From: Hyphomicrobiales bacterium
Lineage (GTDB): Bacteria > Eisenbacteria > RBG-16-71-46 > SZUA-252
Direction: 5' to 3'
DNA: 64,000 nucleotides
Assembly (NCBI GenBank): GCA_050257555.1
Contig: JBLMXB010000029.1
Span: 7,174 to 71,173 of the forward strand
The position numbers were made by a program, and so were the translations under genes. Positions 17,890-57,041 of this stretch are shown piece after piece. Within the stretch, counting starts at the first letter, position 1. The number at the start of each line of letters is the position of its first letter. The notes under the pieces are model-generated. The model searched no databases and was not told the origin of the DNA. It was given only the letters and a program-made list of their open reading frames with translations.

Positions 17890-17924
17890 GGATGGAACCC
17901 TCCGGCTCCCGTGGGACCCTGTGT

Positions 17925-25100: not shown

Positions 25101-25115
25101 GCAAACGGCATGCCA
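25101..25115 (-). promoter_or_regulatory. Sigma-54 (-24/-12) promoter candidate upstream of the GspE-like ATPase
   Basis: The minus strand reads TGGCATGCCGTTTGC (TGGCAY-N5-TTGC). It is intergenic, correctly oriented, and about 60 nt upstream of the GTG at 25040. Confidence 0.6.
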
Positions 25116-25212
25116 TCCGCGGGGCGGGAGTGCGACCGCCGGAACTCGTTGGGACTAGCGGCGCTGGCGCGGTGCGGGTCCGCGCGGGGAATCGGGGAAC
25201 AGGGCCGCGAGC

Positions 25213-25257
25213 GGCCAGGAACGTGCACGTCGCACGATTTCCGGTCGGGACCTGGCC
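25213..25257 (-). terminator. Nested GC-rich stem-loop just after the purF stop (terminator-like, no U tract)
   Basis: ggccagg (25213-25219) pairs with cctggcc (25251-25257). They enclose the inner hairpin cgtgc-acgtc-gcacg (25222-25236). The element starts 3 nt downstream of the purF stop. Confidence 0.3.
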
Positions 25258-25259
25258 GG

Positions 25260-26702
25260 TCAGGCCCCCCCGTTCCGGGCCGGGATCCGCTCCAGGGCGA
25301 GCTTGTCCATCTCCTCGCCGAACCGCACCGAGTAGTCGCCGTTGAAGCACGCGTAGCAGTGCGCGTCCGGCCGGTCGACGCAGGAGCGGAGGCCCTCCAT
25401 CGACAGGTAGCCGAGCGAGTCGACGTGGAGGTACTTCCGGATCTCCTCGATCGTGTGGGACGACGCGATCAGCTCGCGCCGGTTCGGCGTGTCGATGCCG
25501 TAGTAGCAGGACCATCCGATCGGCGGGCTCGAGACCCGGAAGTGCACCTCCCGCGCGCCGGCGCCGCGGAGCATCATGACGAGGCTCCGGCTCGTCGTGC
25601 CGCGGACGATCGAGTCGTCCACGACGACCACGCGCTTCCCCTCGAGAATGCTCCGCACGGCGTTGAACTTGAGGTTCACGCCGAACGAGCGCGTGATCTG
25701 CTCGGGCGCGATGAAGGTCCGGCCGATGTAGTGGTTCCGGATGAGGCCGAGCTCGAACGGGATCCCGGAGCGCTCGGAGAAGCCGAGCGCGGCGGAGTTG
25801 CTCGAGTCGGGCACCGCGATCACGATGTCGGCCCCGGCCGGGTGCTCCTCGGCGAGCCGGCGCCCGAGCCGGCGGCGGATCGAATCGACGCTCGCGCCGA
25901 AGACCGTGCTGTCCGGGCGCGAGAAGTAGATCAGCTCGAAGACGCACGCGCGGGCCGGCTCGGCGGCGTGCACGCGGAAGGAGCGGACGCCGTCCTTGTC
26001 GATCCGGACCATCTCCCCCGGCTCGATCTCCCGGACGAAATCGGCGCCGACGATGTCGAGCGCGCACGTTTCGCTCGCGAGGACGTGCGCGTCGCCGCGG
26101 CGGCCGAGACAGAGCGGACGGAAGCCGCGCGGATCGCGGACGCCGAAGAGCGCGTCACCCGAGAGGAGCACGAGCGAGTACGCGCCCTGGCAGCGGTTCA
26201 GCGCCTCGACGATCATCCGCTCGATCTCGGTCGCCCGGGAGCGCGCGATCAGGTGGAGGATCACCTCGGTGTCGCTCGTCGTCTGGAAGATCGACCCCTG
26301 GTCCTCCATCTCGCGCCGCAGGTCGAGCGCGTTCACGAGATTTCCGTTGTGCCCGATCGCGAGCTGTCCCTCGCGGAAGTTGACGACCAGGGGCTGCGCG
26401 TTCGTGATCTGATTCCGGCCCGTCGTCGAGTACCGGTTGTGGCCGATCGCCACGTGCCCCTGGAGCCGGCCCAAGGCCTCCCCCGCGAAGACGTCGGAGA
26501 CGAGGCCGAGACCCCGATGGACGCGAAGCTCCGCGCCGTCCGACGCGACGATGCCGGCGCTCTCCTGGCCCCGATGCTGGAGCGAGTAGAGCCCCGCGTA
26601 CGTGAGGCGCGCGGCGTTCTCGGCGCCCCAGATCCCGAAGACGCCGCACTCCTCCCGGAGCCGGTCGCCTGGCGCTTCCCGCGTCCCGTCCGAATCGATC
26701 AC
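25260..26702 (-). CDS. purF: Amidophosphoribosyltransferase
   Basis: 480 aa ORF. The N-terminal Ntn Cys is in ECGVFGIWG. The PRT domain is VVVVDDSIVRGTTS. The C-terminal Cys cluster is CYACFNGDY. Confidence 0.92.
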   Translation of the reverse strand: MIDSDGTREAPGDRLREECGVFGIWGAENAARLTYAGLYSLQHRGQESAGIVASDGAELRVHRGLGLVSDVFAGEALGRLQGHVAIGHNRYSTTGRNQITNAQPLVVNFREGQLAIGHNGNLVNALDLRREMEDQGSIFQTTSDTEVILHLIARSRATEIERMIVEALNRCQGAYSLVLLSGDALFGVRDPRGFRPLCLGRRGDAHVLASETCALDIVGADFVREIEPGEMVRIDKDGVRSFRVHAAEPARACVFELIYFSRPDSTVFGASVDSIRRRLGRRLAEEHPAGADIVIAVPDSSNSAALGFSERSGIPFELGLIRNHYIGRTFIAPEQITRSFGVNLKFNAVRSILEGKRVVVVDDSIVRGTTSRSLVMMLRGAGAREVHFRVSSPPIGWSCYYGIDTPNRRELIASSHTIEEIRKYLHVDSLGYLSMEGLRSCVDRPDAHCYACFNGDYSVRFGEEMDKLALERIPARNGGA

Positions 26703-26727
26703 CGACGACTCCCTTCGCCGCCCCGGC

Positions 26728-27324
26728 TCACGCCGCCCGCATCGCGGGGGCCGGGTCGGCCAGAAATGCCTCGAGCTCGCGCCACGCGAGCGGCGTCCCG
26801 ATCGCGAGCGACGCCTCCGCGTGCGGATTGACCAGGAGCCCGCTCCGCGTCCCGGTCACCGGGCCGACGGCCTCGTACGCCTCGGCCGCCGCCTGGTCCC
26901 CCGCCGGGCCCCGCGTCCAGAGCCACCAGAGCCGCGCCCGGCGGATCGCGCCCAAGCCGGCCAGCGGATGCTCGCGGCGGAGGCGGGCGAGGAGCCCCTC
27001 GTCGCGCGTGTCGTCGCGCGGCCGCACCAGGATCCCCCAGGCGCCCTCGGGCGGGGCGAGCGACGCCCCGCGCTCCGCCGCCGGGAGGAAGCGGTACCGC
27101 TCCTTGTTTGGATTCACGAAGAAGTTGCTCGACTCGATCGCGAGGGCGAGCGCCGGCTCGAACGCGTCGGACGCGGCGCCCGCCTCGGGCGTGAAGAGGA
27201 AGAGATCCTCCCGCACGAGCCGGTCGATCGCGTGCCCCGGCGGCAGGAGCCGCCGCGCCGTGTCGAGCGCGGTCAACGCCGTGAGGTCGGCGATCTTGAG
27301 CCGGGTCAGGAGCACCGCGCTCAT
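26728..27324 (-). CDS. Hypothetical protein, candidate tandem (duplicated) PurS-like FGAM synthase subunit
   Basis: 198 aa ORF between purQ and purF. The two halves each end in a PurS-like segment (…SSNFFVNPNKERYRF and …RSGLLVNPHAEASLA). No separate ~80 aa purS ORF is seen in the cluster. The assignment is by eye only. Confidence 0.45.
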   Translation of the reverse strand: MSAVLLTRLKIADLTALTALDTARRLLPPGHAIDRLVREDLFLFTPEAGAASDAFEPALALAIESSNFFVNPNKERYRFLPAAERGASLAPPEGAWGILVRPRDDTRDEGLLARLRREHPLAGLGAIRRARLWWLWTRGPAGDQAAAEAYEAVGPVTGTRSGLLVNPHAEASLAIGTPLAWRELEAFLADPAPAMRAA

Positions 27325-28160
27325 CGCGCCTCCGCGGGAGCGGCCACGCCCAGACGGGCCGCGAGCGACGCGAAGAGGAAGCGGCCGGGGCCGGGGCCCT
27401 CGAGCGCGTCGAATCGCCCGACCGCCGCCCGCCGGCGGTCGCCCCAGGAGCCCGGCCAGTCGAGCGGCACGTGCTTGAGCGCCGCGGCCCGCTCCGGGTG
27501 CGGCATGAACGCGAGCACGTTCCCGGCGCGGTTCGTGAGGCCGGCCGTCGCGAGCATCGAGCCGTTCGGGTCGTCGGGGTACGCGAGGGCGGGCCCGCCC
27601 TCGGCGTCCACGTACCGGAGGAGGGCGAGCCCCTCCTTCTCGATCGCCGCGCGGACTTCGGGATCGGCGGTCTCGAAGCGCCCCTCGCCGTGCGCGATCG
27701 GGAGCGGCACCGATTCCGCGAGCGGGAGCGCCGACGTGAACGTCGCGCGGCCCGGCCCCTCGACGCCGCGGACGCGCACCCAGCGGCAGAGGTATCCCGC
27801 GCGGCGCGGCGCGCGGTTCGGCGCGAGCGCCACGTCGACGCGCCCCGGAACGAGGCCCGGGACGAGCCCGGCTTCGACCAGGACCTGCGCCCCGTTGCAG
27901 ATCCCGAGCACCGGCTTCCCCCGCTCCGACTCCTGCGCGATCCGCTCCACGGCGGGGAGCTTCGCGGCCACCGCGCCCGCGCGGATCCGGTCCTGGAACG
28001 CGAAGCCGCCGGGGAGGAGGTACGCGTCGAACTCCGAGAGCACCGACGCCGGCTCGTTGAACCGGACGATCGTCGCTTCGATCCCGACCGCCTCGAGCGC
28101 CCGCGCGCTCTCGTACTCGCAGTTGACGCCGGGAATCTGGAGCACCGCCGCGCGCGCCAT
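27321..28160 (-). CDS. purQ: Phosphoribosylformylglycinamidine synthase, glutamine amidotransferase subunit
   Basis: ATG at 28160 (MARAAVLQIPGVNCEYE…). The catalytic GICNGAQVL and MPHPER motifs are present. It is 279 aa. Confidence 0.9.
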   Translation of the reverse strand: MARAAVLQIPGVNCEYESARALEAVGIEATIVRFNEPASVLSEFDAYLLPGGFAFQDRIRAGAVAAKLPAVERIAQESERGKPVLGICNGAQVLVEAGLVPGLVPGRVDVALAPNRAPRRAGYLCRWVRVRGVEGPGRATFTSALPLAESVPLPIAHGEGRFETADPEVRAAIEKEGLALLRYVDAEGGPALAYPDDPNGSMLATAGLTNRAGNVLAFMPHPERAAALKHVPLDWPGSWGDRRRAAVGRFDALEGPGPGRFLFASLAARLGVAAPAEAR

Positions 28161-28162
28161 CG

Positions 28163-34611: not shown

Positions 34612-34702
34612 GGTCAGCGGGACTCCCTTGGGTGCCTTCGGAGGGGCTCGCCCTTCGGGCGGGCCACCTAAAGCCCCACGATAGCCGGTCGCGTCCTCCC
34701 TG

Positions 34703-37292: not shown

Positions 37293-37354
37293 GGTCGGCT
37301 CTCCCGGTGTGGCGCGGGCCGACGCGGCGCCCGCGGTGGTGGTTCAGACGGGCG

Positions 37355-37382
37355 AGTATAGAAAGCGTCGCGGCGAAATCAA
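37355..37382 (-). promoter_or_regulatory. Sigma-70-type promoter candidate for the oxidoreductase-lnt transcription unit
   Basis: The minus strand reads TTGATT-N16-TATACT, an AT-rich island in a GC-rich intergenic region about 60 nt upstream of the GTG at 37292. The -35 overlaps the stop of the sigma-54 activator gene. Confidence 0.45.
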
Positions 37383-38500
37383 GGCCAATCGCCCGGAGCG
37401 TCGTCGGCGCGCGGCGTCGCGCCCGCGCCGTCGGCGTCGTCGTCGAGCGGCCCGGCGGCGTCGGCGCGAAGGCGGCGGAGCTTCTTCCAGAGTCCCTGGC
37501 GCGTGAGCCCGAGCGCGCGGGCCGCGAGCGTGCGATTGCCGCGGTGGTGCGCGAGCGCGCTCCGGATCAGCTCGGCCTCGTACGCGCGCGTCCGTCCCCG
37601 GAGCGTCGCGCGGTCGCGCGCCACGACGACGCGCGGACCGTCCCCCTCCTCGCCGAGCGCGTCGGGCCCGATCACGCCGCCCTCCCCCGCGACGTGCGCC
37701 GCCCGCGTGAGCGCCGCCTCGAGCTCCCGGACGTTCCCCGGCCAGTCGTGCGCGGCCAGCCGGTCGAGCGCGTCGCGGCGCACGCCCCGGATCCGGATCC
37801 CGTCCCGAAGCCCGATGCGACCGAGCAGGTGCGCCGCGAGGAGCGGGAGGTCCTCGCGCCGGTCGCGGAGCGGCGGCACGTCGAGCGCGAGCACGTGGAG
37901 CCGGTAGTAGAGGTCGGCACGGAAGCGTCCGGCCCGCGCCTCGCCGGCGAGGTCGCGATGCGTCGCGGCGACGATCCGGACGTCGACCGTGCGCGCGCGG
38001 CCGTCGCCGACGCGCCGCACCTCCCCCTCCTGGAGCACGCGGAGGAGCCGGCTCTGCACGGAGGCGCTCGCGTCGCCGATCTCGTCGAGGAAGAGGGTGC
38101 CCCCGTGCGCCAGCTCGAAGAGGCCGGGGCGGTCGGCGTGCGCGCCGGTGAACGCGCCGCGCGCGTGGCCGAAGAGCTCGCTCTCGACCAGCGTGTCGGG
38201 GATCGAGGCGAAGTTGTGCGGCAGGAACGCGCGGTCGGCGCGGCGGCTCCGCGCGTGGACCGCCCGCGCGACGAGCTCCTTGCCGGAGCCGGTCTCGCCG
38301 CGGACCAGCACGGTGGCGTGGCTCCGCGCGTGCGCGGTCAGGCGCGCGCCGAGCCGGAGGAGCGCCGGGCTCGCGCCGACCAGTCCGAGCGCCGCGTACG
38401 GGCCGAGGCCGGCGGGCGCGAGCGCCTCGAGCGGCACGACCGCGCCTTCCCTTTGCGCGACCGCCGCCGGTCCCGCGTTTCGTTCGTCGCGCTCCGCCAC
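37379..38500 (-). CDS. Sigma-54-dependent transcriptional activator lacking an N-terminal sensory/receiver domain (PspF-like architecture)
   Basis: 373 aa ORF. The AAA+ core begins at about residue 50 (VLVRGETGSGKE). The GAFTGA loop is present (HARGAFTGA), with WPGNVRELE and a C-terminal Fis-type HTH (NRTLAARALGLTRQGLWKKL). Confidence 0.85.
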   Translation of the reverse strand: MAERDERNAGPAAVAQREGAVVPLEALAPAGLGPYAALGLVGASPALLRLGARLTAHARSHATVLVRGETGSGKELVARAVHARSRRADRAFLPHNFASIPDTLVESELFGHARGAFTGAHADRPGLFELAHGGTLFLDEIGDASASVQSRLLRVLQEGEVRRVGDGRARTVDVRIVAATHRDLAGEARAGRFRADLYYRLHVLALDVPPLRDRREDLPLLAAHLLGRIGLRDGIRIRGVRRDALDRLAAHDWPGNVRELEAALTRAAHVAGEGGVIGPDALGEEGDGPRVVVARDRATLRGRTRAYEAELIRSALAHHRGNRTLAARALGLTRQGLWKKLRRLRADAAGPLDDDADGAGATPRADDAPGDWP

Positions 38501-38524
38501 CGCCCCTCCTCCCCGTCCGCGCGC

Positions 38525-39550
38525 CTACGCGCCGAGCAGCCGCACCTCCCGCGTCCCGGCCACGATTCCGCCGACGCGATGCGCGCGGTGCCCCTCGCGG
38601 GCGAGCGCGTCCTCGATCGCGTCGGCGTCGCCGCCGCGCGCGACGAGCAGGAGCCCGAGCCCCATGTTCCAGACTTCGTACGCCTCCGCGTCCGCGACCC
38701 GTCCCTCGCGGCAGAGCGCGCGGAAGACCTCCGGCACCGGCCACGCGCCGAGCCGGATCTCGGCCGCGACGTGCGGCGGCAGGACGCGCACCAGGTTCCC
38801 CGGGATGCCGCCGCCGGTGACGTGCGCCATGCCGCGCACCTCGCCGGCCGCCCGCGCCACCGCGACCGGCGCGCCGTAGTACGGATGGGGCGCGAGGAGC
38901 ACGTCGCCGACGGTGGCCGCGAGGCCCGGGAAGGGGTCGCCGACGCCGAGCCCGAGCGTGTCGAACAGGATCCGCCGCGCGAGCGAGTAGCCGTTCGTGT
39001 GGAGGCCGACGCTCGGCAGCCCGAAGACGACGTCGCCCGGCTCGATGGCGGCGCCGTGGATCAGGTCGCGCTCGTTCGCGACGCCGACGATCGCGCCCGC
39101 GAGGTCGTAGTCGTCCGCGGCGTAGAGGCCCGGCATCTCCGCGGTCTCGCCGCCGATCAGCGCGCAGCCGACCTCGCGACAGCCGCGCGCGAGCCCGGCC
39201 ACCAGCGCCTCCACCCGCTCCGGGCGGAGCGCGCCCATCGCGATGTAGTCGAGGAAGAAGAGCGCCCTCCCGCCGTGGACCAGGATGTCGTTCGCCGAGT
39301 GGCAGACGAGGTCGTAGCCGACGGTGTCGTGCCGGTCGCAGAGGATCGCGACCTTCACCTTCGTCCCGACACCGTCCATGCTGGAGAGGAGCACCTGCCC
39401 CGGCGCGCCCGGCATGCGATACGCGCCCGCGAAGAGCCCGACGTCGCTCAGCACGGCGTCGCCGAACGTGCCGCGACAGAGGTCGCGGATCCGGGCGACC
39501 GCCTCCTCCCCCTTCCGGATGTTGACGCCCGCCTCTTCGTACCGGCTCAT
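38525..39550 (-). CDS. purM: Phosphoribosylformylglycinamidine cyclo-ligase (AIR synthetase)
   Basis: ATG at 39550 (MSRYEEAGVNIRKGEEAV…) with an ATGA overlap with the HD-GYP gene stop. DGVGTK and GGETAEMPG motifs are present. It is 341 aa. Confidence 0.92.
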   Translation of the reverse strand: MSRYEEAGVNIRKGEEAVARIRDLCRGTFGDAVLSDVGLFAGAYRMPGAPGQVLLSSMDGVGTKVKVAILCDRHDTVGYDLVCHSANDILVHGGRALFFLDYIAMGALRPERVEALVAGLARGCREVGCALIGGETAEMPGLYAADDYDLAGAIVGVANERDLIHGAAIEPGDVVFGLPSVGLHTNGYSLARRILFDTLGLGVGDPFPGLAATVGDVLLAPHPYYGAPVAVARAAGEVRGMAHVTGGGIPGNLVRVLPPHVAAEIRLGAWPVPEVFRALCREGRVADAEAYEVWNMGLGLLLVARGGDADAIEDALAREGHRAHRVGGIVAGTREVRLLGA

Positions 39551-40929
39551 CGCACGGCCTCGAGCGGCGCGGGCTCGCGCGGCTCCGGCGCGGGCCGGGC
39601 GGACCCGTCCGGCTCCGGCTCGCGCCAGACCGGGAGCGCCCCCGCCTCGTGGAGGGAGACGAGCGCCTCGACGATCTCGGGATCGAACTGCGCGCCCGCG
39701 TGGCGCCGGAGCTCGCCGAGGGCGCGGTCGACCGGCAGCCCCCTCCGGTACGGGCGGTCCGACGTCATCGCGTCGAACGCGTCGCACGCGTGGATGATCC
39801 GGGCCCCGAGCGGCACCTCGTCCTCGGTCAGCCCCGGCGGGTAGCCCTTCCCGTCGGGACGCCAGTGGTGCGTGCGCACCATAAGGGCCGCGTCCCGGAG
39901 CGAGCGGATCTGGCCCACGATCAGGGCGCCCGCCTCGGGGTGGCGCATCATCACGCGGCGCTCCTCCTCGTCGAGCGCGGTCGGCTTCCGGATCACGTCG
40001 GGGCGCTGCGCGATCTTCCCGATGTCGTGGACGAGCGCCGCGTAGTGGATCGTCTCGACCTCGGATTCCGGGAGCGCGAGCCACCGCGCCACGCGGACGG
40101 CATAGTCCGCGACGCGGACGGAGTGCTCGTGCGTGTAGGGGTCGACCGCGTCGAGCGCCACGCTCAGCGCGCGGACGAAGGAGACGAGGTCCTCCTTGAG
40201 ATCGGCATAGAGGCGGAGCGCGTACCGCGCGAGGAAGAGCGGCACCACGAGGAGCACGATGCCGGGGATGCCCGCGGCCATCCGCACCTGCGCGAAGAGG
40301 AGCCCGAACCCGATCGCGAGGAGGTGCTGCGGCAGTCCGTCGCGGAACTGCTGGCGCCAGATCGTCTGCGCCGCCTCGCGCGTGCGCGCCCCCAGGACCA
40401 GGCTCACCCATCCGGTGTTGAGCGCGTAGTAGAGCGCCCCGGCCAGGAGGATCGGTCCGAAGGCCGCGAGCGTCGGCGCGCCGAGCGCGCCGCCCGCGGC
40501 GAGGTACGCGCTCCCCGCCAGGATCGTCGTGGAGGCGTAGAGCCCCGCGTTCAGCGCCGCCGCGCCCGGCCGCTGCCGGAGGAGGAAGAGCTGCGCGGGG
40601 ATCGTGGTCAGGAGGTCGAGCGCGCCCGCGATCCACGGTCCGAAGAGGAGAATCGCCGCGACGTCGAGCACCGACGCGATCGTGATCGTCCCGCCGCGCG
40701 GCAGCGGGACCGGGAGCGCCTCCGCGACCAGGAGCAGCACGAACCAGACGCCGATGCCGATCGGATCGACGCGCGTCTGCTTCACCTCGGGGCCGCCGAA
40801 GAGCGCGAGCAGCACGGGGAGCGCGGCGAGGAAGGACGGCACCAAGACCCAGGCGGCGCGCGACGCGAAGCGCCTGGCCCGCGCGGCGTCCGGCGGCTCG
40901 GGGAGCGGCGGCGACGTCAGGACCGGCAT
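39547..40929 (-). CDS. Membrane-anchored HD-GYP domain protein (putative c-di-GMP phosphodiesterase)
   Basis: A polytopic N-terminal ~250 aa is followed by HD-GYP: HEHSVRVA, ALVHDIGKI, HHWRPDGKGYP, CDAFDAMTSDRPYR. I prefer the ATG at 40929 (GAGGG upstream), because the TTG at 40980 lies inside the sigma-54 promoter motif. Confidence 0.82.
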   Translation of the reverse strand: MPVLTSPPLPEPPDAARARRFASRAAWVLVPSFLAALPVLLALFGGPEVKQTRVDPIGIGVWFVLLLVAEALPVPLPRGGTITIASVLDVAAILLFGPWIAGALDLLTTIPAQLFLLRQRPGAAALNAGLYASTTILAGSAYLAAGGALGAPTLAAFGPILLAGALYYALNTGWVSLVLGARTREAAQTIWRQQFRDGLPQHLLAIGFGLLFAQVRMAAGIPGIVLLVVPLFLARYALRLYADLKEDLVSFVRALSVALDAVDPYTHEHSVRVADYAVRVARWLALPESEVETIHYAALVHDIGKIAQRPDVIRKPTALDEEERRVMMRHPEAGALIVGQIRSLRDAALMVRTHHWRPDGKGYPPGLTEDEVPLGARIIHACDAFDAMTSDRPYRRGLPVDRALGELRRHAGAQFDPEIVEALVSLHEAGALPVWREPEPDGSARPAPEPREPAPLEAVR

Positions 40930-40976
40930 GGGATGCCCTCGGGTTCGATCCACGCGATTCGGAGCCACGGCCGAAC

Positions 40977-40991
40977 GCAACCAGTGTGCCA
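40977..40991 (-). promoter_or_regulatory. Sigma-54 (-24/-12) promoter candidate upstream of the HD-GYP/purM/activator operon
   Basis: The minus strand reads TGGCACACTGGTTGC (TGGCAC-N5-TTGC). It is intergenic and about 48 nt upstream of the ATG at 40929. Confidence 0.6.
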
Positions 40992-41113
40992 GCCCGGGGC
41001 GCCGGCGGGAAGGCGTAACCGCGTGCGGGACGCGGTACCACGCGGCGGCCGCGCGCCGAGGCGCGGGCCGCGCGGCGTCGGCCGCCCGTCGCCGTCGGCC
41101 GCGATGGAAGGGA

Positions 41114-42043: not shown

Positions 42044-42045
42044 CG

Positions 42046-45138: not shown

Positions 45139-45141
45139 AGT

Positions 45142-46524: not shown

Positions 46525-46561
46525 GACCCCCTCATGGTACCAGAGCGGGCGGCCCGCTCCG

Positions 46562-47974
46562 TCAGGCCGCGAGCCGCTTTCCCTCGAGCGGAACGGTGAC
46601 GGTGAACCGCGCGCCGCCCCGCTCGTCGTTCTCCGCGACGATCGTGCCGCCGTGATTGCGGACGATCCGGTAGCTGGTCGAGAGCCCGAAGCCGTGTCCC
46701 TCCGGCTTCGTGGTGACCGACGGCTCGAAGATCCGGCGGAGCACGTCCCCGGCGATCCCGGGGCCGGCGTCGTGCACGACGATCGTCACGCCGTCGGCGT
46801 CGGCCCGCGTCCGGACGGCGATCCGCGGATCGGCCGTCTTCGCGGCGTTCATGGCGTCCGCCGCGTTGCTGAAGAGGTTGAGGAGCACCTGCTGGATCTG
46901 GCCGGGATCGAGGTTCATCTCGGGCACGCCCGCGTCGAGATCGAGGTCGAACGCGACCCGCTCGTACTTGTTCTGCGGGACGATGAACTCGATCGTGCGG
47001 CGGATCAGGTCGTTCAGCCGCGTCGGCTGCTTCCGGATCCCCTTGTGCGAGAAGTCGAGGAGCCCCTTCACGAGCACCCCCATGTTCCGCGCCTGCTCGA
47101 CGATGATGCGCGCGCTCTCCTCGGTCTTCTCGAGCGGCTGCTTCCCGATCCCCATGAGGAGCAGCTGGCCGCGTCCGGAGATCGCCGCGAGGTAGTTGTT
47201 GAGCTCGTGCGCGACCTCGGCCGCCATCTCGCCTTTCGCCGCGAGGCGCTCCTGGGAGATCAGCTCGTCCTTCGCCTTCTCGAGCGCGATGTACTTCTCG
47301 CCCGCTTCCTTGATGAGGAGGAGCGGCACGAAGAAGAAGATCAGGCCGAAGAAGCCGACCGCCAGGTACGACACGACGACGAGCGGCGAGAGGAAGAAGA
47401 GCGCCGCCGAGCCGACGAGCGAGTTCGCGTACAGGTACTCCTCGCGCCAGGTCGTCAGGAGCTTCCGTCCCGACGAGAGCGCGACCGCCCCCGACACGAG
47501 GAGCGTGTTGACGAGGAAGTAGACGAGCGTCATGACCGTCCACGGCAGGATCAGCGCGGGGCCGTGCATTCTCATGAGCCCGCCGGCCGCCACGAGGGGA
47601 TGGCCGCCGAGCGCCGTGAACGCGAGGCCGGCGGCCGCGATCGCCAGCACGTTCTGGCCCGCGTTGAAGATCGTCTTGTACCAGACCCGCTTCGAGAAGA
47701 AGAGGTTCGCGAGCGTGAAGGCGACCGCGACGATCCAGACCGAGGGCATGAATCCGAGGAGGACGAGGAGCGCGATGTCGACGACGGAGGCCATGCTCTC
47801 CATCGCCTTCCCCGTGATCGTCGAGAGCCAGAGGCTCTCGGCGAGGAGGCTGACGACGACCCACGCCGCGAGCTGCATCCAGCCGACCGGCGCGAGCGCG
47901 TGGAAGGAGAGCGCGAGCACGAAGCCGCCCGCCATCGTGACGAGCGAGACGTACGTGACGAGCGCGGGGCTCAC
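46562..47974 (-). CDS. Sensor histidine kinase with polytopic N-terminal membrane module; no adjacent response regulator
   Basis: The GTG at 47974 overlaps the upstream stop (GTGA). The H-box is EMAAEVAHELNNYL. The N/G boxes are LLNLFSNAADA, HDAGPGI, GHGFGLS. It is 470 aa. Confidence 0.82.
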   Translation of the reverse strand: MSPALVTYVSLVTMAGGFVLALSFHALAPVGWMQLAAWVVVSLLAESLWLSTITGKAMESMASVVDIALLVLLGFMPSVWIVAVAFTLANLFFSKRVWYKTIFNAGQNVLAIAAAGLAFTALGGHPLVAAGGLMRMHGPALILPWTVMTLVYFLVNTLLVSGAVALSSGRKLLTTWREEYLYANSLVGSAALFFLSPLVVVSYLAVGFFGLIFFFVPLLLIKEAGEKYIALEKAKDELISQERLAAKGEMAAEVAHELNNYLAAISGRGQLLLMGIGKQPLEKTEESARIIVEQARNMGVLVKGLLDFSHKGIRKQPTRLNDLIRRTIEFIVPQNKYERVAFDLDLDAGVPEMNLDPGQIQQVLLNLFSNAADAMNAAKTADPRIAVRTRADADGVTIVVHDAGPGIAGDVLRRIFEPSVTTKPEGHGFGLSTSYRIVRNHGGTIVAENDERGGARFTVTVPLEGKRLAA

Positions 47975-48789: not shown

Positions 48790-48877
48790 GCCGGCGCCCG
48801 CCTTCCGCCAGTAACGCCAAGGGCGATGCGACCTTGCGTGGTCACGACGCGACCGTAGCAGCGGGCGCGCGGGACGG

Positions 48878-50379: not shown

Positions 50380-50457
50380 GCGCGCGCACCCGGCCGCGAG
50401 GAGGACCGCGAGGCAACCCCCTTGCGCGAGGGCCGCGCGGAAGGCAGAGTGGGCGCC

Positions 50458-51252
50458 GTGACGACCGAACGACTCTGGCGCCCGCCGGCGGGAGCGCTTC
50501 CGCCCGCGACCGACTTCGCGGTCACGACCCGGCGCGGCGGCGCGAGCGCGGGCCCGTTCGCCACGCTCAACGTCGGCCTCGTGCCGGGCGAGCGCGAGGA
50601 GGCGGTCGCGGAGAACCGGCGCCGCGTGCGGGCCGATTTCGGCGCCGGCGAGCGGGAGCCTTTCCGCGTCCACCAGGTCCACGGCGACCGGATCGTTCCC
50701 GCCCGGTCCGCCGGCGACGCGCCGGGCCTCCGCGCCGACGGGCTCCTCCTCGACGGTCCGAGGCGCGACGCGACGACCCCGGGCGACGCCCGTATCCCCT
50801 GCGTCGCGGTCAGCGTCGCGGATTGCGCGCCGGTCGCGATCGTCGCCGAGGGAGCGCCGCTCGCGGCGCTCCTCCATTGCGGCTGGCGCGGCACCGTGGC
50901 CGGCATCGTGCCGCGCGCCGTCTCGCTCCTCGAGGCGCGCGGCGCGCGCGCCCGCGCGCTCCGCGCCGTCGTCGGCCCCTGCATCCACCCGTGCTGCTAT
51001 CCCGTGGGGCCGGACGTCGCGGCGCGGTTCCCCACGATCCACCTCGTGCCGCACGCGAGCGGCCGTCACGCGCTCGATCTCCCCGGCGCGATCGTCGCGA
51101 CCCTGCGCGCCGCCGGCGTCCCCGCGTCCCGCATCACGGTCGCCGGCGAGTGCACGTCCTGCCGGAGCGACCTCTTCTTCTCCCACCGGCGCGACCGCGG
51201 CGTCACGGGGCGCCACTGGGCGCTCCTTCGTCTGGGGCGCGCGCCCGCGTGA
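50458..51252 (+). CDS. pgeF: YfiH/PgeF-family (DUF152) purine nucleoside phosphorylase / peptidoglycan editing factor
   Basis: GTG at 50458. VTTRRGGASAGPFATLNVG, VHQVHGD, ADCAPV, HCGWRG and FFSHRRD are the family's conserved blocks. This is the only supported plus-strand gene. Confidence 0.8.
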   Translation: MTTERLWRPPAGALPPATDFAVTTRRGGASAGPFATLNVGLVPGEREEAVAENRRRVRADFGAGEREPFRVHQVHGDRIVPARSAGDAPGLRADGLLLDGPRRDATTPGDARIPCVAVSVADCAPVAIVAEGAPLAALLHCGWRGTVAGIVPRAVSLLEARGARARALRAVVGPCIHPCCYPVGPDVAARFPTIHLVPHASGRHALDLPGAIVATLRAAGVPASRITVAGECTSCRSDLFFSHRRDRGVTGRHWALLRLGRAPA

Positions 51253-51784
51253 GGGTGCGCACCAGACGCCGGTAGCCCTTCCGCCCGACGAAGCCGAGGA
51301 AGAGTCCGAGGATCGTCCCACCGAGCACGTCCGACGGCCAGTGGTCGCCGACGTAGATCCGCGACAGGGAGACCGCGCCCGCGACGACGTACGCCGCCAC
51401 CGTGATCTCCGGGAAGACCGCGGCGATCACGGGCGCGGCCGCGAAGAAGTTCGTCGCGTGCACCGAAGGGAACGAATAGCTGTGTCGGACCCCGAAGAGC
51501 GGGCGCGCGTCGGCGAGGACCACCGAGGGCCGGGCGCGCTTGAAGATCGGCTTCAGCACCTTGGCCGACGTCTGGTCCGAGATCGCGAGCGTGAGCGCCA
51601 GGACCACGAGGCCGATCGCGCCGCGGGCGCGGCGGAGGAGCGGGAAGCAGAGCCCGATCGCGACGAGAATCGGGATCTTGAATGCGCCGGGATCGGTCAG
51701 CGCGCGCATCACGGGATCGAGCCAGGCCTGGTGGCACCCGAGGTGGATGGCCCGGAAGACGGCCGTGTCCCACGCCTGCCCCAT
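51203..51784 (-). CDS. PAP2-family lipid phosphatase
   Basis: 193 aa membrane ORF with the tripartite PAP2 motif KPIFKRARP … SFPSVHA … SRIYVGDHWPSDV. It is 12 nt downstream of the giant OMP gene. Confidence 0.8.
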   Translation of the reverse strand: MGQAWDTAVFRAIHLGCHQAWLDPVMRALTDPGAFKIPILVAIGLCFPLLRRARGAIGLVVLALTLAISDQTSAKVLKPIFKRARPSVVLADARPLFGVRHSYSFPSVHATNFFAAAPVIAAVFPEITVAAYVVAGAVSLSRIYVGDHWPSDVLGGTILGLFLGFVGRKGYRRLVRTLTRARAPDEGAPSGAP

Positions 51785-51796
51785 CCGGGCTCCCGA

Positions 51797-54700
51797 TCAG
51801 AAGTCCGCGCCGAACGTCACGAAATTCTGCGGCCTTCCGACCCCGCCGTTCAATTTGAACTCCCGCCCGTAGTCGTAGCGGAGGATGAAGTAGCCGAGGT
51901 TGACGCGGGCGCCGAAGCCCCAGGCGAGGTGGAGGTTCTCCGTGTGGAGTCCGCCGGCGGTCGAGAAGAAGACCGGGTCCGTCCCCTTCTCCCACGCCGT
52001 CGCGCCGTCGAGGAACATCACCCCGTTGAAGCCGCCGAGGCCCAGGGAGAGCGGCCAGCCGAGCCGGAGCTGCTCGATCAGCGGGAAGCGGAACTCGAGG
52101 TTCCCGATCAGCGCCCGCGTCCCGACGAGGTCGCCGTAGTCGGCGCCGCGGTACGTGAACGCGCCGCCGAACCGGAAGAGCTGCGGATCCCGCCCCCACG
52201 AGCCGCCGGCGATCAGCCGCTGCGCGAGGGCGTACCGGTGGCGGATGTTGGTGTAGCGCCGCCAGTCGAGGATCCCCGTCGTGTAGTGCACGTCGCCGAT
52301 CGCGTGCTCGAGCGAGTACCGCGAGCGGCCGCCGTTGATCGGCCCCGTGGAGTTGTACAGCGTGTTGTCGGCCACGAGCCCGATGTTCGGCGCCACGTAG
52401 AAGAAGTCACCGTTGTTCTGGAGCGTCGAGATCGTCCCCAGGTCGTAGTTGTACTGGAGCACCCGCTCGCTGATCACCGCGGACGTGATGCCGTACTCGA
52501 ACCGCCGGAACCGGTTGAACGGACGCGCGAAGAAGATCGACCCGCCGCGGTAGATCTGGCTCTCCACGTTGTCGCTCGACGGCGCCGACAGGAGCAGGAG
52601 GTCGTTCCGGTACTGGAAGACCGCGAGGCCCCAGTTCGTCCGGTGCGCGAGGTTCGAGTACGCGAGGTAGATGTCCGACTGCGAGAGGTCGCCGTAGAGG
52701 TTCAGGACGGCCAGGATGTTCCGGTTGCCGAGCACGTCGCTGAACGAGATCACGCTCGAGCCCGCGAATCCGATGTTCGAGGCGAAGAGGGCGCCGCCGC
52801 TCACGTAGTCGCGCGAGAACTTCGCCTTGTACGGCAGGCGCACGAACGACGTGCTGTCGGCGAGCGGCTCGCGATAGACCTCCCGGATGTACGTGCCGAG
52901 CGTCGTGTCGATCACCGCCCCGCTCGAATCGGCCGGCGTCGCCGCCCGGACCCGGAGCGCCGCGGAGGTCGCGGCGCCGCCCGAGGCGCTGTCGGCGGCC
53001 GCGGAATCCGCGGGGGCGTCGCCGCCCGACGTCGCGACGGAATCGGCCGGGGCGGCGGGCGCCTCGTCCGGCGGGGCGGCGGGCGCCTCGTCCGGCGGGG
53101 CCGCGGCGAGCACCGACGGCATCAGCCCGCTCGATGCCTCCTGGGTGCCGAGCGGCGCAAGCGAGCCGATCGCCCCCGGCGCGAGGTCCTGGTCGGCCAG
53201 GATCATCGTGACCGGCGCGTTGATGAACTTCCGCGGCTCGCGCACCGAGTAGATGTCCCACCCGCCGCGCGTGAAGGCCGTGAAGAGGAGGCGCTTCCCG
53301 TCGGGGGAGAGCGAGATGCACGGCGCGTTCGGCACGAGCCCCGAGACGCCGTTCAGCAGGTTCGAGAGGCGGTAGGAGTCGGCCGTGGCCAGGTCGAGCC
53401 GGTAGATGTTCGGCGTCCCCGAGCGGTCGGAGACGAAGACCAGCGACTTGCCGTCGGGCGTCCACTGCGGGGAGAAGCTGGATCCGCTCTGCTTCGGCAG
53501 GACCCGGACCTCGCCCGTGGTCATGTCGTAGAGCGCGAGGCGGAGCTTGCCGAAGATCAGCCGCTCGGGCTCCGTCCCGGCGCCGCGGTCGGTCGTGAAC
53601 GCGATCGTCCCCCCGTCCGGCGACCAGGCAGGGTCGCGGTACGAGTACGGCCCGCCCGCGAGCTCGCGGAGATCCTTCCCGTCCGCGCCGGCGACGTAGA
53701 GCGCGGACATTCCGTTCTTGAGCCCGACGAACGCGATCCGTTTCCCGTCCGGCGACCAGGCCGGGGAGTAGATCGCGTCGAGCCCGAAGCGGAGCTTCCG
53801 CTCGATCTTCCCCGACGGGATCCCGATCACGTAGATCGCGTCCTCGGGGCCCGACTTGACCGGGAGCGCGATCTCCTTCTCGTCGGGCGCCCAGGCGATG
53901 GAGGAGTCGAAGTAACGGAGCGTCTCGTACGTGCCGGTCCGCTCCCCCGACACCAGCTTCTTGAACACCTTCCCGTCGAGGGCCGACGCGAGATAGACGT
54001 CGTTGTACATGCTCCGGTCGGAGATGAAGACCATCTGGAGCCCGGACGGCGACACGGCCGGCGCGACGTTGAAATCGGAGAGATCGTGCTCGGAGTCGGT
54101 CAGCTTCGAGGCGATCACGTCGGGCTTGTCGCTGTCCGCGATCTGCGGCAGGTACTGCTTGCGCACCGCCTCCTGCCACTTCTTGGAGAGCACGTCGACG
54201 GTCAGGCCGGTCGACGCCTCGAGCGCCCGCTCCGCGCTCCCCATCCGCTTCGTCCGTTTCAGGATCTCCCCGATCTTCTCGATCCCGTACGTGTCGGCGA
54301 TGAACTGCCAGATCGACTGGCCGAAGCGATAGACGCGGAGATCGCCGACGTACGACAGGACCCCGATCGGGATGAGGTACCCCTCGAGCGAGGCGTCGCG
54401 GAGCCACATCTGCGTGTTCGTGTCGATCTCGCCGACCGACAGGTACTCCGCCATCCCCTCCATGAACCACCCCGGCGGCGCGTTGGCGAAGGGGTTCGAG
54501 ACGAGACCGCCCCGGTCGCCGAAGAGGATGTCGACCTGGAACGCGTGCACCAGCTCGTGGGTCAGGACGTGGTCGAACTCCGCGAAGTCGCCGGTGAACG
54601 GCAGGAAGACCCGCCGCTTCAGGTACTCGGTGATCCCGCCCGTGCCGAGGCTGATCAGCTCCGGCGTGATGTTCGTCTGCTCGAAGTCGGAGTGGGACGC

Positions 54701-55024
54701 GTAGAGGACGAGCGGCACCCGCTCCCGGATGTCGTGGTGGAGCACGCGGCTCAGCCGGTCGTACGCGCGCTCGGCCATCAGCGCGGCGTCCTGCACCGCC
54801 GCCTCGGTCCCCGTGTAGTGGTAGATGTCGAAGTGCTGCGTGCGCAGCACCTTCCAGTTGAACTTCTTGTACTGGACCTTGTTCTGGCCGAACCACTGCG
54901 CCTCGGCGCGCGGCGGCGCCGCGGTCGCGAGGAGCGCGGCCAGCGCGAGGAGCACGACCCACGCGGCGCGGGCGCGTCCGCGGGGCGGACGGGACGGGAG
55001 CTGCCGGTCTCGCTGTCGCATCAT
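51797..55024 (-). CDS. Giant outer-membrane protein A: HExxH peptidase-like domain + TolB/PD40-like beta-propeller + Omp85-type beta-barrel
   Basis: 1075 aa ORF. It has a signal peptide (…ATAAPPRAEA), HELVHAF plus EGMAEY, repeated PAWSPDGKRIAF / PAWSPDGGTIAF / PQWTPDGKSLVF / LSPDGKRLLF, an Ala/Pro/Ser linker, a C-terminal barrel (LEFRFPL, FLDGATAW, GFGARVNLGYFILRYDYG) and a terminal F. Confidence 0.8.
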   Translation of the reverse strand: MMRQRDRQLPSRPPRGRARAAWVVLLALAALLATAAPPRAEAQWFGQNKVQYKKFNWKVLRTQHFDIYHYTGTEAAVQDAALMAERAYDRLSRVLHHDIRERVPLVLYASHSDFEQTNITPELISLGTGGITEYLKRRVFLPFTGDFAEFDHVLTHELVHAFQVDILFGDRGGLVSNPFANAPPGWFMEGMAEYLSVGEIDTNTQMWLRDASLEGYLIPIGVLSYVGDLRVYRFGQSIWQFIADTYGIEKIGEILKRTKRMGSAERALEASTGLTVDVLSKKWQEAVRKQYLPQIADSDKPDVIASKLTDSEHDLSDFNVAPAVSPSGLQMVFISDRSMYNDVYLASALDGKVFKKLVSGERTGTYETLRYFDSSIAWAPDEKEIALPVKSGPEDAIYVIGIPSGKIERKLRFGLDAIYSPAWSPDGKRIAFVGLKNGMSALYVAGADGKDLRELAGGPYSYRDPAWSPDGGTIAFTTDRGAGTEPERLIFGKLRLALYDMTTGEVRVLPKQSGSSFSPQWTPDGKSLVFVSDRSGTPNIYRLDLATADSYRLSNLLNGVSGLVPNAPCISLSPDGKRLLFTAFTRGGWDIYSVREPRKFINAPVTMILADQDLAPGAIGSLAPLGTQEASSGLMPSVLAAAPPDEAPAAPPDEAPAAPADSVATSGGDAPADSAAADSASGGAATSAALRVRAATPADSSGAVIDTTLGTYIREVYREPLADSTSFVRLPYKAKFSRDYVSGGALFASNIGFAGSSVISFSDVLGNRNILAVLNLYGDLSQSDIYLAYSNLAHRTNWGLAVFQYRNDLLLLSAPSSDNVESQIYRGGSIFFARPFNRFRRFEYGITSAVISERVLQYNYDLGTISTLQNNGDFFYVAPNIGLVADNTLYNSTGPINGGRSRYSLEHAIGDVHYTTGILDWRRYTNIRHRYALAQRLIAGGSWGRDPQLFRFGGAFTYRGADYGDLVGTRALIGNLEFRFPLIEQLRLGWPLSLGLGGFNGVMFLDGATAWEKGTDPVFFSTAGGLHTENLHLAWGFGARVNLGYFILRYDYGREFKLNGGVGRPQNFVTFGADF
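53049..53100. repeat. 24-bp tandem duplication (about 2.2 copies) in the linker of giant OMP A
   Basis: ggggcggcgggcgcctcgtccggc occurs at 53049-53072 and 53073-53096, followed by a partial third copy. It encodes PPDEAPAA twice. Confidence 0.85.
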
Positions 55025-56226
55025 GTCGTCGTCCCCTTCTCGGTGCCGGCCATCGCGAGACGCCCCGCCTCGTCGAGGGCGGCGGCGACGCTCGTCTCGG
55101 GAATCGCTCCCTGCGCGGACTCGGGCCGGCCGCCCCCCTTGGCCCCGTGCCGGCGGCAGAGATCGGCGAAGATCGCGCCTACCGCTATTGTACCCTTCGG
55201 CGCGGAAAAGTGCGCGCGGGCGCTCCCGCGCCCGGCGGCCAGGAGCGCGATCCCGCCGCGCGCCGCGATCGAGGCCGCCAACGGCGCGATCTCCGCGGGG
55301 TCGCGGTCCGGGAAGTGGCGGACCACGACCGGCCCGCGCGCCCCGGCGGGCGCGCCGGCCACCAGCGCCTCGGCTTCGCGCTCGAGCGCCTCCTTGAGGA
55401 GCGGCTTGAGGCGCGCCTCGAGGCGGCCCCGCTCCTCCCGGAGCCGCGCGATGGCGCGGGGAAGCTCGGCCTCGCCCGTCGTGAACTCGAGGCAGAGCCC
55501 CTTCAGCACCGACGTCGCGTCCCGGAGCCGGCGAAGCGCCCGTCCCCCGCAGGCGAACGGGATCCTCGTCCCTCCCTTGTACCGCTCGGCACCGAGGATC
55601 GTGACGATCCCGACGGCGCCCGAGCGGCGGACGTGGGTGCCGCCGCAGGCCGACCAGTCGAATGCGTCCACCTCGACGACCCGGACCTCCCCCTCCACGT
55701 CGGGCGGCTTCCGGAGCGGGAACGAGCGCGCCTGCTCGAGGCTCACGACGTGCGTGCGCACGTCCCGATCCTCCCAGACGATCTCGTTCGCGCGGTCCTC
55801 GACGCGCGCCAGGAGCGCCGCGTCGGGGCCGGGATGGTCGACGTCGATCGTCACGACGTCCTCCCCCAGGTGGAACGAGCGGGTGTCGGCCCGCGCCACG
55901 TCGACGAACGCGCGGGAGAGGATGTGCTGCCCGGTGTGCTGCTGCATGTGGTCGAAGCGGCGCGCCCAGTCGAGCGCGCCGGCCACCGGCGCTCCGGGCT
56001 CGAGCGCGCCGGCGACGACGTGCCAGATCGTCCCGTCCTCCTCGAGGACGTCCGTGACGGCGTGGCCGTCGAGCGTGCCGCGGTCGGAGGGCTGCCCCCC
56101 GCCGCCGGGGTAGAACGCGGTCGCGTCGAGGGCGACGCGCGTCGCCCCGCCGTCGGCGCGCGCCTCCCGGACGCGGGACTCGAAGGCGCGGAGCAGGGAA
56201 TCGTCGTAGTAGAGGCGCTGGGTCAA
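55021..56226 (-). CDS. alaX: AlaX-L-type alanyl-tRNA editing protein (tRNA_SAD + DHHA1-like)
   Basis: 401 aa ORF with a TTG start at 56226 (GAGGA upstream). The zinc/editing motifs are HTGQHIL and CGGTHV. The C-terminal GGGRPESAQG is typical of the AlaRS C-terminal module. Its stop overlaps the start of OMP A (ATGA). Confidence 0.8.
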   Translation of the reverse strand: MTQRLYYDDSLLRAFESRVREARADGGATRVALDATAFYPGGGGQPSDRGTLDGHAVTDVLEEDGTIWHVVAGALEPGAPVAGALDWARRFDHMQQHTGQHILSRAFVDVARADTRSFHLGEDVVTIDVDHPGPDAALLARVEDRANEIVWEDRDVRTHVVSLEQARSFPLRKPPDVEGEVRVVEVDAFDWSACGGTHVRRSGAVGIVTILGAERYKGGTRIPFACGGRALRRLRDATSVLKGLCLEFTTGEAELPRAIARLREERGRLEARLKPLLKEALEREAEALVAGAPAGARGPVVVRHFPDRDPAEIAPLAASIAARGGIALLAAGRGSARAHFSAPKGTIAVGAIFADLCRRHGAKGGGRPESAQGAIPETSVAAALDEAGRLAMAGTEKGTTT

Positions 56227-56278
56227 CCGAGTGGATCCTCGAACCGGGCGGCGGGGACGTTTCGTCGAGGATACAGGA

Positions 56279-56309
56279 GAGGCTCCCCGACGGGCAATCG
56301 GGGAGCCTC
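56279..56309 (-). terminator. Perfect 12-bp stem / 7-nt loop hairpin between the 165-aa gene and alaX (attenuator/terminator or RNA-stability element; no U tract)
   Basis: gaggctccccga (56279-56290) pairs with tcggggagcctc (56298-56309); the loop is cgggcaa. It lies 24 nt after the upstream stop and 53 nt before the alaX TTG. Confidence 0.4.
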
Positions 56310-56332
56310 GAAGCTTCGTGCGGCGGTCCGGG

Positions 56333-56830
56333 TCAGCGCGTCAGCGCCTCGTTCCGCTGCTCGACCAATTCGGCGATCGTCTCCGTGATGCCGCGGAGCT
56401 CCGCCAGCGTCATCTCGAACCGCTCGTCGTGGACGTACGCCTTCTCCAGCTCGTGCACGGTCGCGTGCAGCTGGTCGAGGGCCTCGACGATGCGGCGGTC
56501 GTAGCCCGACGCCGCGTCCACCGCGTCGTCGCTCAGCGCGCTCTTCTGCGCGGGCGACGCGAGCGGAATCGAGTCGGCCAGGAACTCCAGCTTCCGGGCC
56601 CCGGCGTCCACTTCCTCGAGCAGGTCGGAGTAGTCCTCTCCGAACTGATGGCTCTCGATGCGCTCGAGCCGGTGCGCCTCGCCGGCCAGATGCTCGGCGA
56701 TCGAATGGCGGAACCGGCGGTCGTCCTCGCGGCGCTGCGCCAGCTCCTGATATCCCTTGTAGCCCGGAACCCGGCGCGCGATTTCCTCGACGGCATCGAG
56801 CGTGGCGAGCTTCTGGCGGGTGCGTGGCAT
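56333..56830 (-). CDS. Hypothetical all-helical 165-aa protein
   Basis: ATG at 56830, with AGGAGGA beginning 15 nt upstream of it (8-nt spacer). The acidic, heptad-like sequence is …EEIARRVPGYKGYQELAQRREDDRRFRHSIAEHLAGEAHRLERIE…. The GTG at 56959 would add an Arg-rich extension, which I consider leader. Confidence 0.6.
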   Translation of the reverse strand: MPRTRQKLATLDAVEEIARRVPGYKGYQELAQRREDDRRFRHSIAEHLAGEAHRLERIESHQFGEDYSDLLEEVDAGARKLEFLADSIPLASPAQKSALSDDAVDAASGYDRRIVEALDQLHATVHELEKAYVHDERFEMTLAELRGITETIAELVEQRNEALTR

Positions 56831-57026
56831 TCGGTTCGTCCTCCTGATCCATGCAGAGTGCACGATTCCTCGCCGGTGCACGGCCTCGAGCGACATCACC
56901 GGTCGCCGCCCGGGCTCCGCCCCCCGCACCTTCCGGGTGGCGGTATCGACTTGAAGCACCGACAGATCCGTCCGAATCGCGGGCGCCGCGTCGCCGCGGC
57001 CTCCCCGCGCCCGGGGCCGGAGGTCT

Positions 57027-57041
57027 GCAACGCGTGTGCCA
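57027..57041 (-). promoter_or_regulatory. Sigma-54 (-24/-12) promoter candidate upstream of the 165-aa gene/alaX/OMP A/PAP2 unit
   Basis: The minus strand reads TGGCACACGCGTTGC(A), i.e. TGGCAC-N5-TTGCA. It is 18 nt after the stop of the lipoprotein gene. The predicted leader to the ATG at 56830 is about 185 nt. Confidence 0.6.

Follow-up and report, generated by a model that had tools for sequence, protein, structure and literature searches.

Three sequences that closely resemble the −24/−12 promoters of the alternative sigma factor sigma-54 (RpoN) lie within one 64-kb stretch of Candidatus Eisenbacteria DNA (contig JBLMXB010000029.1; the whole stretch that was analyzed is hereafter the window). 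An earlier note on this DNA had located them at 25101-25115, 40977-40991 and 57027-57041 on the minus strand (sites 1, 2 and 3), and proposed that they form a small sigma-54 regulon coupling turnover and sensing of cyclic di-GMP (c-di-GMP) to remodeling of the outer membrane. We asked whether these sequences are promoters and whether they belong to one regulon. The sigma-54 promoters are very probably real, because related genomes keep the motifs at the same places. Taken as a whole, the evidence makes it likely that the three motifs are genuine sigma-54-dependent promoters acting as three separate switches, and to read them as a regulon goes too far. The source phylum, Candidatus Eisenbacteria, is uncultured and widespread in soil; related loci place the window in it.

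Three near-consensus −24/−12 elements in one window

The window was scanned exhaustively on both strands for TGGCAYNNNNNTTGC (TGGCAY-N5-TTGC), and the number of matches expected by chance was estimated from 100 dinucleotide-preserving shuffles. The motif occurs exactly three times, against an expectation of 0.05. None of the 100 shuffles contained three matches, and about one shuffled window in 20 contained a single match. The earlier note's figure of 0.2 expected matches was too high, and the enrichment is stronger than was claimed. The looser pattern TGGC-N8-TGC gave 10 matches (4.5 expected); on the minus strand, its sole match besides the three sites falls within lolD. When the window was scored with a weight matrix made from 48 orthologous promoter instances, sites 2, 3 and 1 ranked, in that order, as the top three (Table 1), followed by a match within lolD at 11.3.

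Genes were called by codon usage in this high-G+C window (72% G+C), and products were assigned by Pfam and NCBIfam profile searches. All 50 called genes lie on the minus strand, and so do the three motifs, each in the same orientation as the gene downstream. The intergenic gaps that hold sites 1, 2 and 3 (219, 184 and 228 nucleotides [nt], respectively) are three of the four largest in the window. The start codon lies 60 nt beyond the end of TTGC at site 1 (GTG at 25040), 47 nt at site 2 (ATG at 40929) and 196 nt at site 3 (ATG at 56830), and Shine-Dalgarno sequences precede these start codons. The positions, strand, intergenic placement and orientation described in the earlier note were all reproduced, and its range of 48-190 nt from motif to start codon comes close to the measured distances.

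Conservation of the elements in related genomes

The closest metagenome-assembled genome (MAG) shares 87% protein identity with the window, and gene order around all three sites is kept in related loci. In 645,452 bp of related DNA, scanned on both strands, all 42 strict matches fell at orthologous promoter positions and none fell elsewhere; about 1.9 matches would be expected by chance. The earlier note had considered that the motif might turn out to be frequent at random positions, and the related DNA shows the opposite. At orthologous loci the −24 and −12 blocks are invariant and exactly spaced, and the 5-nt spacer between them varies freely. Judged from these alignments, the combination of fixed blocks and a free spacer is a sigma-54 signature.

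At site 2, about 30 of 31 related loci retain the element. The strict motif is found at 19 orthologous loci, 52-68 nt before the start codon and with many different spacers, and a variant, TGGCAC-N5-GTGC, occupies the same position at 11 further loci. Site 3 has the strict motif at all 20 orthologous loci, between −206 and −217 from the ATG, in invariant alignment columns. Sites 2 and 3 are very probably real sigma-54 promoters. Site 1 is narrower in distribution. Its motif is kept only in the four closest relatives (L081, L082, L088 and L089), at −69 to −77 from the start codon and with a variable spacer, and is absent from L083-L087, whose orthologues of the downstream ATPase are 70-72% identical. 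These five loci, a sister clade, have a different conserved element, TCAAGATC-N14-CCGATAGAC, about 130-160 nt upstream of the ATPase start. Site 1 is probably a real sigma-54 promoter, and its alignment is that of promoter turnover, a lineage-specific promoter replacement.

In paralogous ATPase genes (L090-L097), GGCCGATAAC lies about 45 nt ahead of the start. This sequence and the element of the sister clade may be promoters of another sigma factor, perhaps of the extracytoplasmic function (ECF) type.

Several contigs with Eisenbacteria synteny and 72-82% protein identity are filed under other taxa (L003/L161, L005/L088, L006/L162, L020/L174, L031/L179, L087 and L030; filed among Limnocylindrales, Omnitrophota, Bacteroidota, Binatia, Dormiibacterota, Acidobacteriota and Latescibacterota). 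Mis-binning or mislabeled MAGs are the likely cause.

Table 1. Coordinates of the promoter elements, transcription units and flanking features in the window (TSS, transcription start site; EBP, enhancer-binding protein; aa, amino acids).
Feature	Position	Strand	Evidence and remarks
Site 1, −24/−12 element TGGCATGCCGTTTGC	25101-25115	−	Exact match; matrix score 16.1; predicted TSS about 25089
PilB/GspE-family ATPase, N-terminal MshEN, C-terminal double zinc ribbon, 650 aa	23088-25040	−	Pfam, NCBIfam
Sigma-70-type promoter TTGACC-17-TAGAAT, for lysS	23085-23113	−	Overlaps last 26 nt of ATPase gene
Candidate enhancer CGACGGCGACGGGCGGCCGACG, 22 bp	41076-41097	−	85 nt upstream of the −24 GG of site 2
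Site 2, −24/−12 element TGGCACACTGGTTGC	40977-40991	−	Exact match; matrix score 19.9; predicted TSS about 40965
Membrane-anchored HD-GYP phosphodiesterase (putative), 460 aa; gene 1 of unit 2	39547-40929	−	Pfam HD_5 (PF13487), 110 bits
purM (AIR synthetase); gene 2 of unit 2	38525-39550	−	TIGR00878, 322 bits (cut-off 236)
Sensor-less sigma-54 EBP, 373 aa; gene 3 of unit 2	37379-38500	−	Sigma54_activat (PF00158), 214 bits; HTH_8
Sigma-70-type promoter TTGATT-16-TATACT, for GFO oxidoreductase and lnt	37355-37382	−	At 3′ end of EBP gene
Site 3, −24/−12 element TGGCACACGCGTTGC	57027-57041	−	Exact match; matrix score 19.1; predicted TSS about 57015
Leader of conserved length	56831-57026	−	194-205 nt from −12 element to ATG in 21 genomes
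hyp165, acidic five-helix-bundle protein, 165 aa	56333-56830	−	AlphaFold2 model, pLDDT 84, pTM 0.82
Terminator-like hairpin, 13-bp perfect, GAGGCUCCCCGAU/GUCGGGGAGCCUC with tail UCCUGUAUCCUC	56267-56309	−	Between hyp165 and alaX
alaX-like editing protein	55021-56226	−	Pfam/NCBIfam
HExxH-peptidase/TolB-propeller/Omp85-barrel fusion, 1052 aa	51797-54955	−	Pfam/NCBIfam
PAP2 phosphatase	51203-51784	−	Pfam/NCBIfam

Site 2 and a helically phased candidate enhancer

Site 2 would drive a short operon, HD-GYP-purM-EBP. A phosphodiesterase operon with a sigma-54 activator is what the earlier note had predicted here, and the protein sequences agree with that prediction. The putative phosphodiesterase retains intact HDIGK and HHWRPDGKGYP motifs behind an N-terminal region of ~240 residues that is hydrophobic; the start of purM overlaps its stop codon by 4 nt; and the EBP combines an AAA+ sigma-54 interaction domain containing GAFTGA with a C-terminal Fis-type helix-turn-helix (HTH), without a sensory domain. 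The sigma-70-type promoter at the end of the EBP gene, which serves GFO oxidoreductase and lnt, has the same hexamers in 13 of 19 relatives as in the window. This conserved promoter therefore delimits unit 2 to HD-GYP-purM-EBP.

Wherever a relative's sequence extends far enough, unit 2 encodes an orthologue of the EBP. In these relatives, just 38-59 residues precede the AAA+ core, and the protein is sensor-less in every one. The HD-GYP-purM-EBP order persists in a lineage of 34-47% protein identity, and the EBP of the distant lineage is a 573-aa protein with an N-terminal extension, encoded in the same HD-GYP-purM-EBP-lnt order. Because that longer version occupies the same gene order, the Eisenbacteria EBP is a truncated form in an old neighborhood. 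On one closed, long-read chromosome (OY969801.1; L016:8621-9419), the EBP orthologue aligns in three pieces with its N-terminal ~80 residues unaligned, which is either a long-read frameshift error or a pseudogene.

Upstream of site 2, following the pfkB stop codon, lies a 22-bp element that reads CGACG-G-CGACG-GGCGGC-CGACG in the window and conforms to the pattern YGWCG-N-YGWCG-N6-YGACG. A single copy precedes site 2 in 30 of 30 genomes; the pattern has only two other matches in 709 kb (both strands), and no other intergenic occurrence in the window. From this element to the −24 GG, 24 genomes have 84-88 nt, four have 74-75 nt and two have 53-55 nt, such that the classes differ by about one and three helical turns, and the sequence in between is not conserved. 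An activator site must face its promoter across a DNA loop, and helical phasing is accordingly expected in sigma-54 systems. Its uniqueness, position and phasing suggest that the element is likely to be a classic sigma-54 enhancer and a candidate upstream activating sequence. At about 110-131 nt upstream of the predicted start, the three pentamers would be a likely docking site for an EBP. The simplest pairing, and the most economical in candidates, would be with the sensor-less EBP of the same operon, implying positive autoregulation that would be seeded by read-through from the upstream genes.

Site 3, its leader and the hairpin after hyp165

Site 3 would drive a small, phylum-specific helical protein, hyp165, through a leader of ~185 nt whose geometry is fixed. 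Two islands in this leader, GATC (56964-56968) and GATAG (56943-56947, where the window reads GATAC), lie at +56-58 and +77-79, respectively, and an invariant palindrome, TGCA-N3-TGCA (56852-56862), lies at +161-166, which places it about 30 nt short of the hyp165 ATG and, as it appears, beside the ribosome-binding site. The window contains a single copy of the palindrome, against 0.09 expected. Across 21 genomes, the offsets of the islands and palindrome from site 3 are fixed within a few nt, and the intervening sequence has diverged. These elements could be an operator, a second promoter or a protein-bound RNA hairpin, all of which are possible.

A riboswitch or otherwise structured leader at site 3 was considered and found to be unsupported. 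The leader matched no Rfam covariance model at the gathering score; its consensus fold (RNAalifold) contained nothing beyond a 4-6 bp palindrome hairpin; and its fold stability was not unusual (z-score −0.9), with individual folds being uninformative. The reading of GATC...GATAG as a housekeeping promoter was likewise dropped, since canonical, conserved sigma-70 promoters were found instead.

No Pfam or NCBIfam family matched hyp165. It has 198 homologues, nearly all unnamed or annotated as ‘hypothetical’, and the family is restricted to the Eisenbacteria clade. When its model was compared with the Protein Data Bank using Foldseek, the best match had an E-value of 0.15 and a TM-score below 0.5, and no significant structural relative was found.

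The hairpin that follows hyp165 (Table 1) is conserved in L161-L166 and L175, where its tail is unchanged and its substitutions are compensatory, and related forms are found in L167-L169. Transcription from site 3 would be expected to terminate here, making the hairpin hyp165’s own terminator. The alaX, Omp85 fusion and PAP2 genes beyond it (51203-56226) keep their synteny in relatives, and no sigma-70-type promoter was detected between 50900 and 57200. Because the conserved hairpin follows hyp165, these genes would be reached from site 3 only by read-through of the hairpin. The earlier note had placed an envelope operon with a giant Omp85 fusion below site 3. The fusion is indeed downstream, but the gene directly served would be hyp165, and the hairpin intervenes before the fusion.

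Over its full length, the 1052-aa fusion is paralogous to a 935-aa PD40-Omp85 protein (59281-62088) that is encoded upstream of site 3. Two giant fusions thus flank the site, both consisting of an N-terminal HExxH (peptidase MA-like) domain, a TolB-type PD40 propeller and a C-terminal Omp85-like barrel, and they are 36% and 34% identical over the two parts.

Site 1 and the MshEN ATPase

Site 1 would drive a monocistronic gene for a PilB-like ATPase that is predicted to sense c-di-GMP through its MshEN domain, from a promoter that is itself a lineage-specific replacement. The protein matches T2SSE (423 bits), MshEN (PF05157; 83 bits) and DZR in Pfam, and the c-di-GMP motif NF053729 in NCBIfam (59 bits; cut-off 38). 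N-terminal to the T2SSE ATPase it carries the tandem motif RLGxx(L/V/I)(L/V/I)xxG(L/V/I)(L/V/I)xxxxLxxxLxxQ, in the forms KKLGEYLLDAGLLGEDQLKEALRRQ and EPLGQILTRAGMVTEGDICRVLHQQ. The sequence is therefore that of a putative c-di-GMP binder, as the earlier note had proposed for a secretion ATPase of the MshEN type. The sigma-70-type promoter at the 3′ end of the ATPase gene has identical hexamers in the window and in eight of eight relatives. With this promoter of its own, lysS is independent of site 1, and unit 1 therefore consists of the ATPase alone.

Strict sigma-54 motifs were also seen near pilB-like genes of other bacteria. In Clostridium malenominatum (L140:3813), one precedes a PilB-like ATPase gene by 188 nt, and in Bdellovibrionota/Oligoflexia loci (L120, L129, L143 and L150) the motif is found several kb ahead of pilB-like genes.

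Three switches, one regulon or no sigma-54 promoters

Sharing sigma-54 does not by itself make promoters co-regulated, as every such promoter answers to an activator of its own. A single regulon would need one activator, plausibly the EBP at 37379-38500, to switch all three promoters and thereby couple c-di-GMP breakdown, c-di-GMP sensing and outer-membrane remodeling. Near-consensus −24/−12 elements are common to the three promoters, the window holds a single EBP gene, relatives show no further EBP gene in the 4-6 kb around site 1 or site 3, and links between c-di-GMP and sigma-54 activators are known (e.g. FleQ and BerB-RpfR). All of this fits one regulon, but the promoter architecture does not. 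An enhancer shared by the three sites was searched for and not found: the 22-bp element of site 2 is absent upstream of sites 1 and 3, both in the window and in 37 related loci. Site 1 is present in one subclade only and gives way to another promoter in the sister clade, whereas sites 2 and 3 are retained. Unit 1 consists of one gene, unit 2 includes purM, and the conserved sigma-70-type promoters and the terminator-like hairpin split the units, the latter separating hyp165 from the Omp85 fusion. We therefore consider a common regulon improbable, contrary to the earlier note. With an enhancer at site 2 only, turnover at site 1 and a hairpin before the Omp85 fusion, the three promoters are more readily understood as independently controlled. 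A narrower alternative concerns site 3 alone, which might be one of two tandem promoters, with the GATC...GATAG islands (+56 to +83) forming a second promoter or operator nearer to hyp165 and the ‘leader’ being in part promoter DNA. In favor of this reading, 17 of 21 genomes keep the islands at fixed offsets, the sister clade has a similar GATC-N14-GATAGA element in place of the sigma-54 motif ahead of the ATPase gene, the leader RNA shows no unusual folding, and one metatranscriptome contig from a relative breaks off at about 56911, on the downstream side of the islands. That contig, however, is a single low-depth assembly; the islands do not resemble the canonical sigma-70 hexamers used in the clade; and one subclade without the islands keeps both the sigma-54 motif and the palindrome. 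We regard tandem promoters at site 3 as possible, though somewhat unlikely.

A further alternative is that the matches are accidental, or are sites or terminator parts for another factor. No rpoN gene was detected in the window (Pfam/NCBIfam) or in about 1.7 Mb of related loci searched by tblastn with an approximate query for the E. coli RpoN C-terminus, and a high-GC back-translated RpoN box searched against genome contigs returned no Eisenbacteria among the matches listed. In the one metatranscriptome with related sequence (X3), contigs of relatives cover genes, but none spans the three promoters. These results leave this alternative some room, as does the occurrence of a single strict match in about one of 20 shuffled windows; parts of our interpretation are limited by the conservation of site 1 in just five genomes, the region upstream of site 1, which has its own blocks and only weak enhancer candidates, the lack of any enhancer for site 3 in a search for upstream elements at a fixed distance, the modest U-richness of the hairpin tail, and the pairing of the EBP with its candidate enhancer by proximity. 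Against chance stand the three matches where 0.05 were expected, the exclusively orthologous positions of the motif in related DNA, and the two fixed blocks with exact spacing around a free spacer. Activators of the GAFTGA type act only with sigma-54, and because such EBPs are conserved in the clade, the presence of sigma-54 is strongly, if indirectly, indicated. Chance or a factor other than sigma-54 is thus a very improbable explanation, and we infer that sigma-54 holoenzyme uses the three sites as separate promoters. The literature searched yielded no report naming Eisenbacteria together with sigma-54 or rpoN.

The window also encodes a MASE9-type membrane histidine kinase (46562-47974), whose best NCBIfam matches are AtoS and ZraS, which partner sigma-54 response regulators. 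Pfam and NCBIfam revealed no receiver-domain protein in the window.

Comparison with known systems

Canonical sigma-54 promoters with upstream enhancers, such as enterobacterial glnAp2 and pspA, have −24/−12 elements with the consensus TGGCAC-N5-TTGCW. The elements in the window are of this type, with GG and GC exactly 10 nt apart within TGGCAY and TTGC, and are intergenic and co-oriented with their genes. The site 2 enhancer, at about 110-130 nt upstream, likewise shifts in distance by whole helical turns only. It differs in consisting of three CGACG-type pentamers rather than a simple dyad, and the setting differs in being an uncultured phylum in which the use of sigma-54 is predicted. The EBP is similar to PspF and HrpR/HrpS, which are enhancer-binding proteins without an N-terminal sensory domain, in that it consists of an AAA+ domain with GAFTGA and a C-terminal Fis-type HTH and has no regulatory domain. 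It is not a PspF equivalog, however (242 bits; TIGR02974 cut-off 444), and unlike these proteins it is encoded within the operon that it may activate, behind the HD-GYP gene and purM, with no PspA- or HrpV-like anti-activator identified.

The ATPase resembles the c-di-GMP-binding ATPases of the MshE type, from type IV pili and type II secretion, in its tandem 24-residue N-terminal MshEN motifs and T2SSE core. In contrast to them, it is encoded by an orphan gene flanked by purF and lysS, the 64 kb contain no partner genes for a pilus or secretion system, the protein carries a double zinc ribbon at its C-terminus, and its scores do not reach the equivalog cut-offs for PilB and GspE.

Sigma-54 activators linked to c-di-GMP include FleQ of Pseudomonas, and BerB of Burkholderia, which acts with the phosphodiesterase RpfR (PMC8125075; PMC9684580). 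Unit 2 is comparable in that a putative phosphodiesterase and a sigma-54 EBP are associated, here as a gene adjacency that is conserved across deep divergence. However, the enzyme is a membrane HD-GYP protein, not a PAS-GGDEF-EAL protein like RpfR, and the EBP, inspected by eye, is without the N-terminal domain and arginine switch of FleQ. By analogy, a link between c-di-GMP and sigma-54 in unit 2 is plausible. A bolder proposal, which we think is unlikely to be correct, would make the HD-GYP protein and the sensor-less EBP a two-protein signaling module, in which the HD-GYP protein supplies the missing sensory input, the module activates its own promoter through the phased enhancer, and co-expression of purM ties purine supply to c-di-GMP turnover. 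The HD-GYP protein would either be a trigger phosphodiesterase that holds or releases the EBP, or set a local c-di-GMP level that the EBP reads. As a separate part of this same doubtful proposal, the ~185-nt leader of site 3 with its palindrome would be an undescribed element of post-initiation control.

Other genes of the window

With 50 co-directional genes over 64 kb, most of whose junctions overlap or are shorter than 40 nt, the gene array is unusually long. A module of McsA-like (UVR), McsB (ATP:guanido phosphotransferase) and ClpC genes (15472-19546) lies directly upstream of bamA-skp-lpxD in this lipopolysaccharide-making organism; the McsA-McsB-ClpC module is best known from Gram-positive bacteria. 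A 444-aa LpxC-FabZ fusion (9949-11283) is encoded within an lpxD/lpxC-fabZ/lpxA/lpxB/kdtA/lpxK/msbA array.

Significance for Eisenbacteria

The very probable sigma-54 promoters described here are a known kind of element in an unstudied phylum, and they show that several sigma-54 motifs seen together are no evidence for a single regulon. They provide a first promoter grammar for Candidatus Eisenbacteria, in which predicted sigma-54 −24/−12 elements stand alongside canonical sigma-70 promoters of the TTGACC/TAGAAT type, and which includes one well-defined candidate enhancer with helical phasing and a conserved operon for an HD-GYP protein and a truncated sigma-54 activator. They are defined well enough to be reconstituted in vitro, and would improve the annotation of operons and regulons in Eisenbacteria MAGs.

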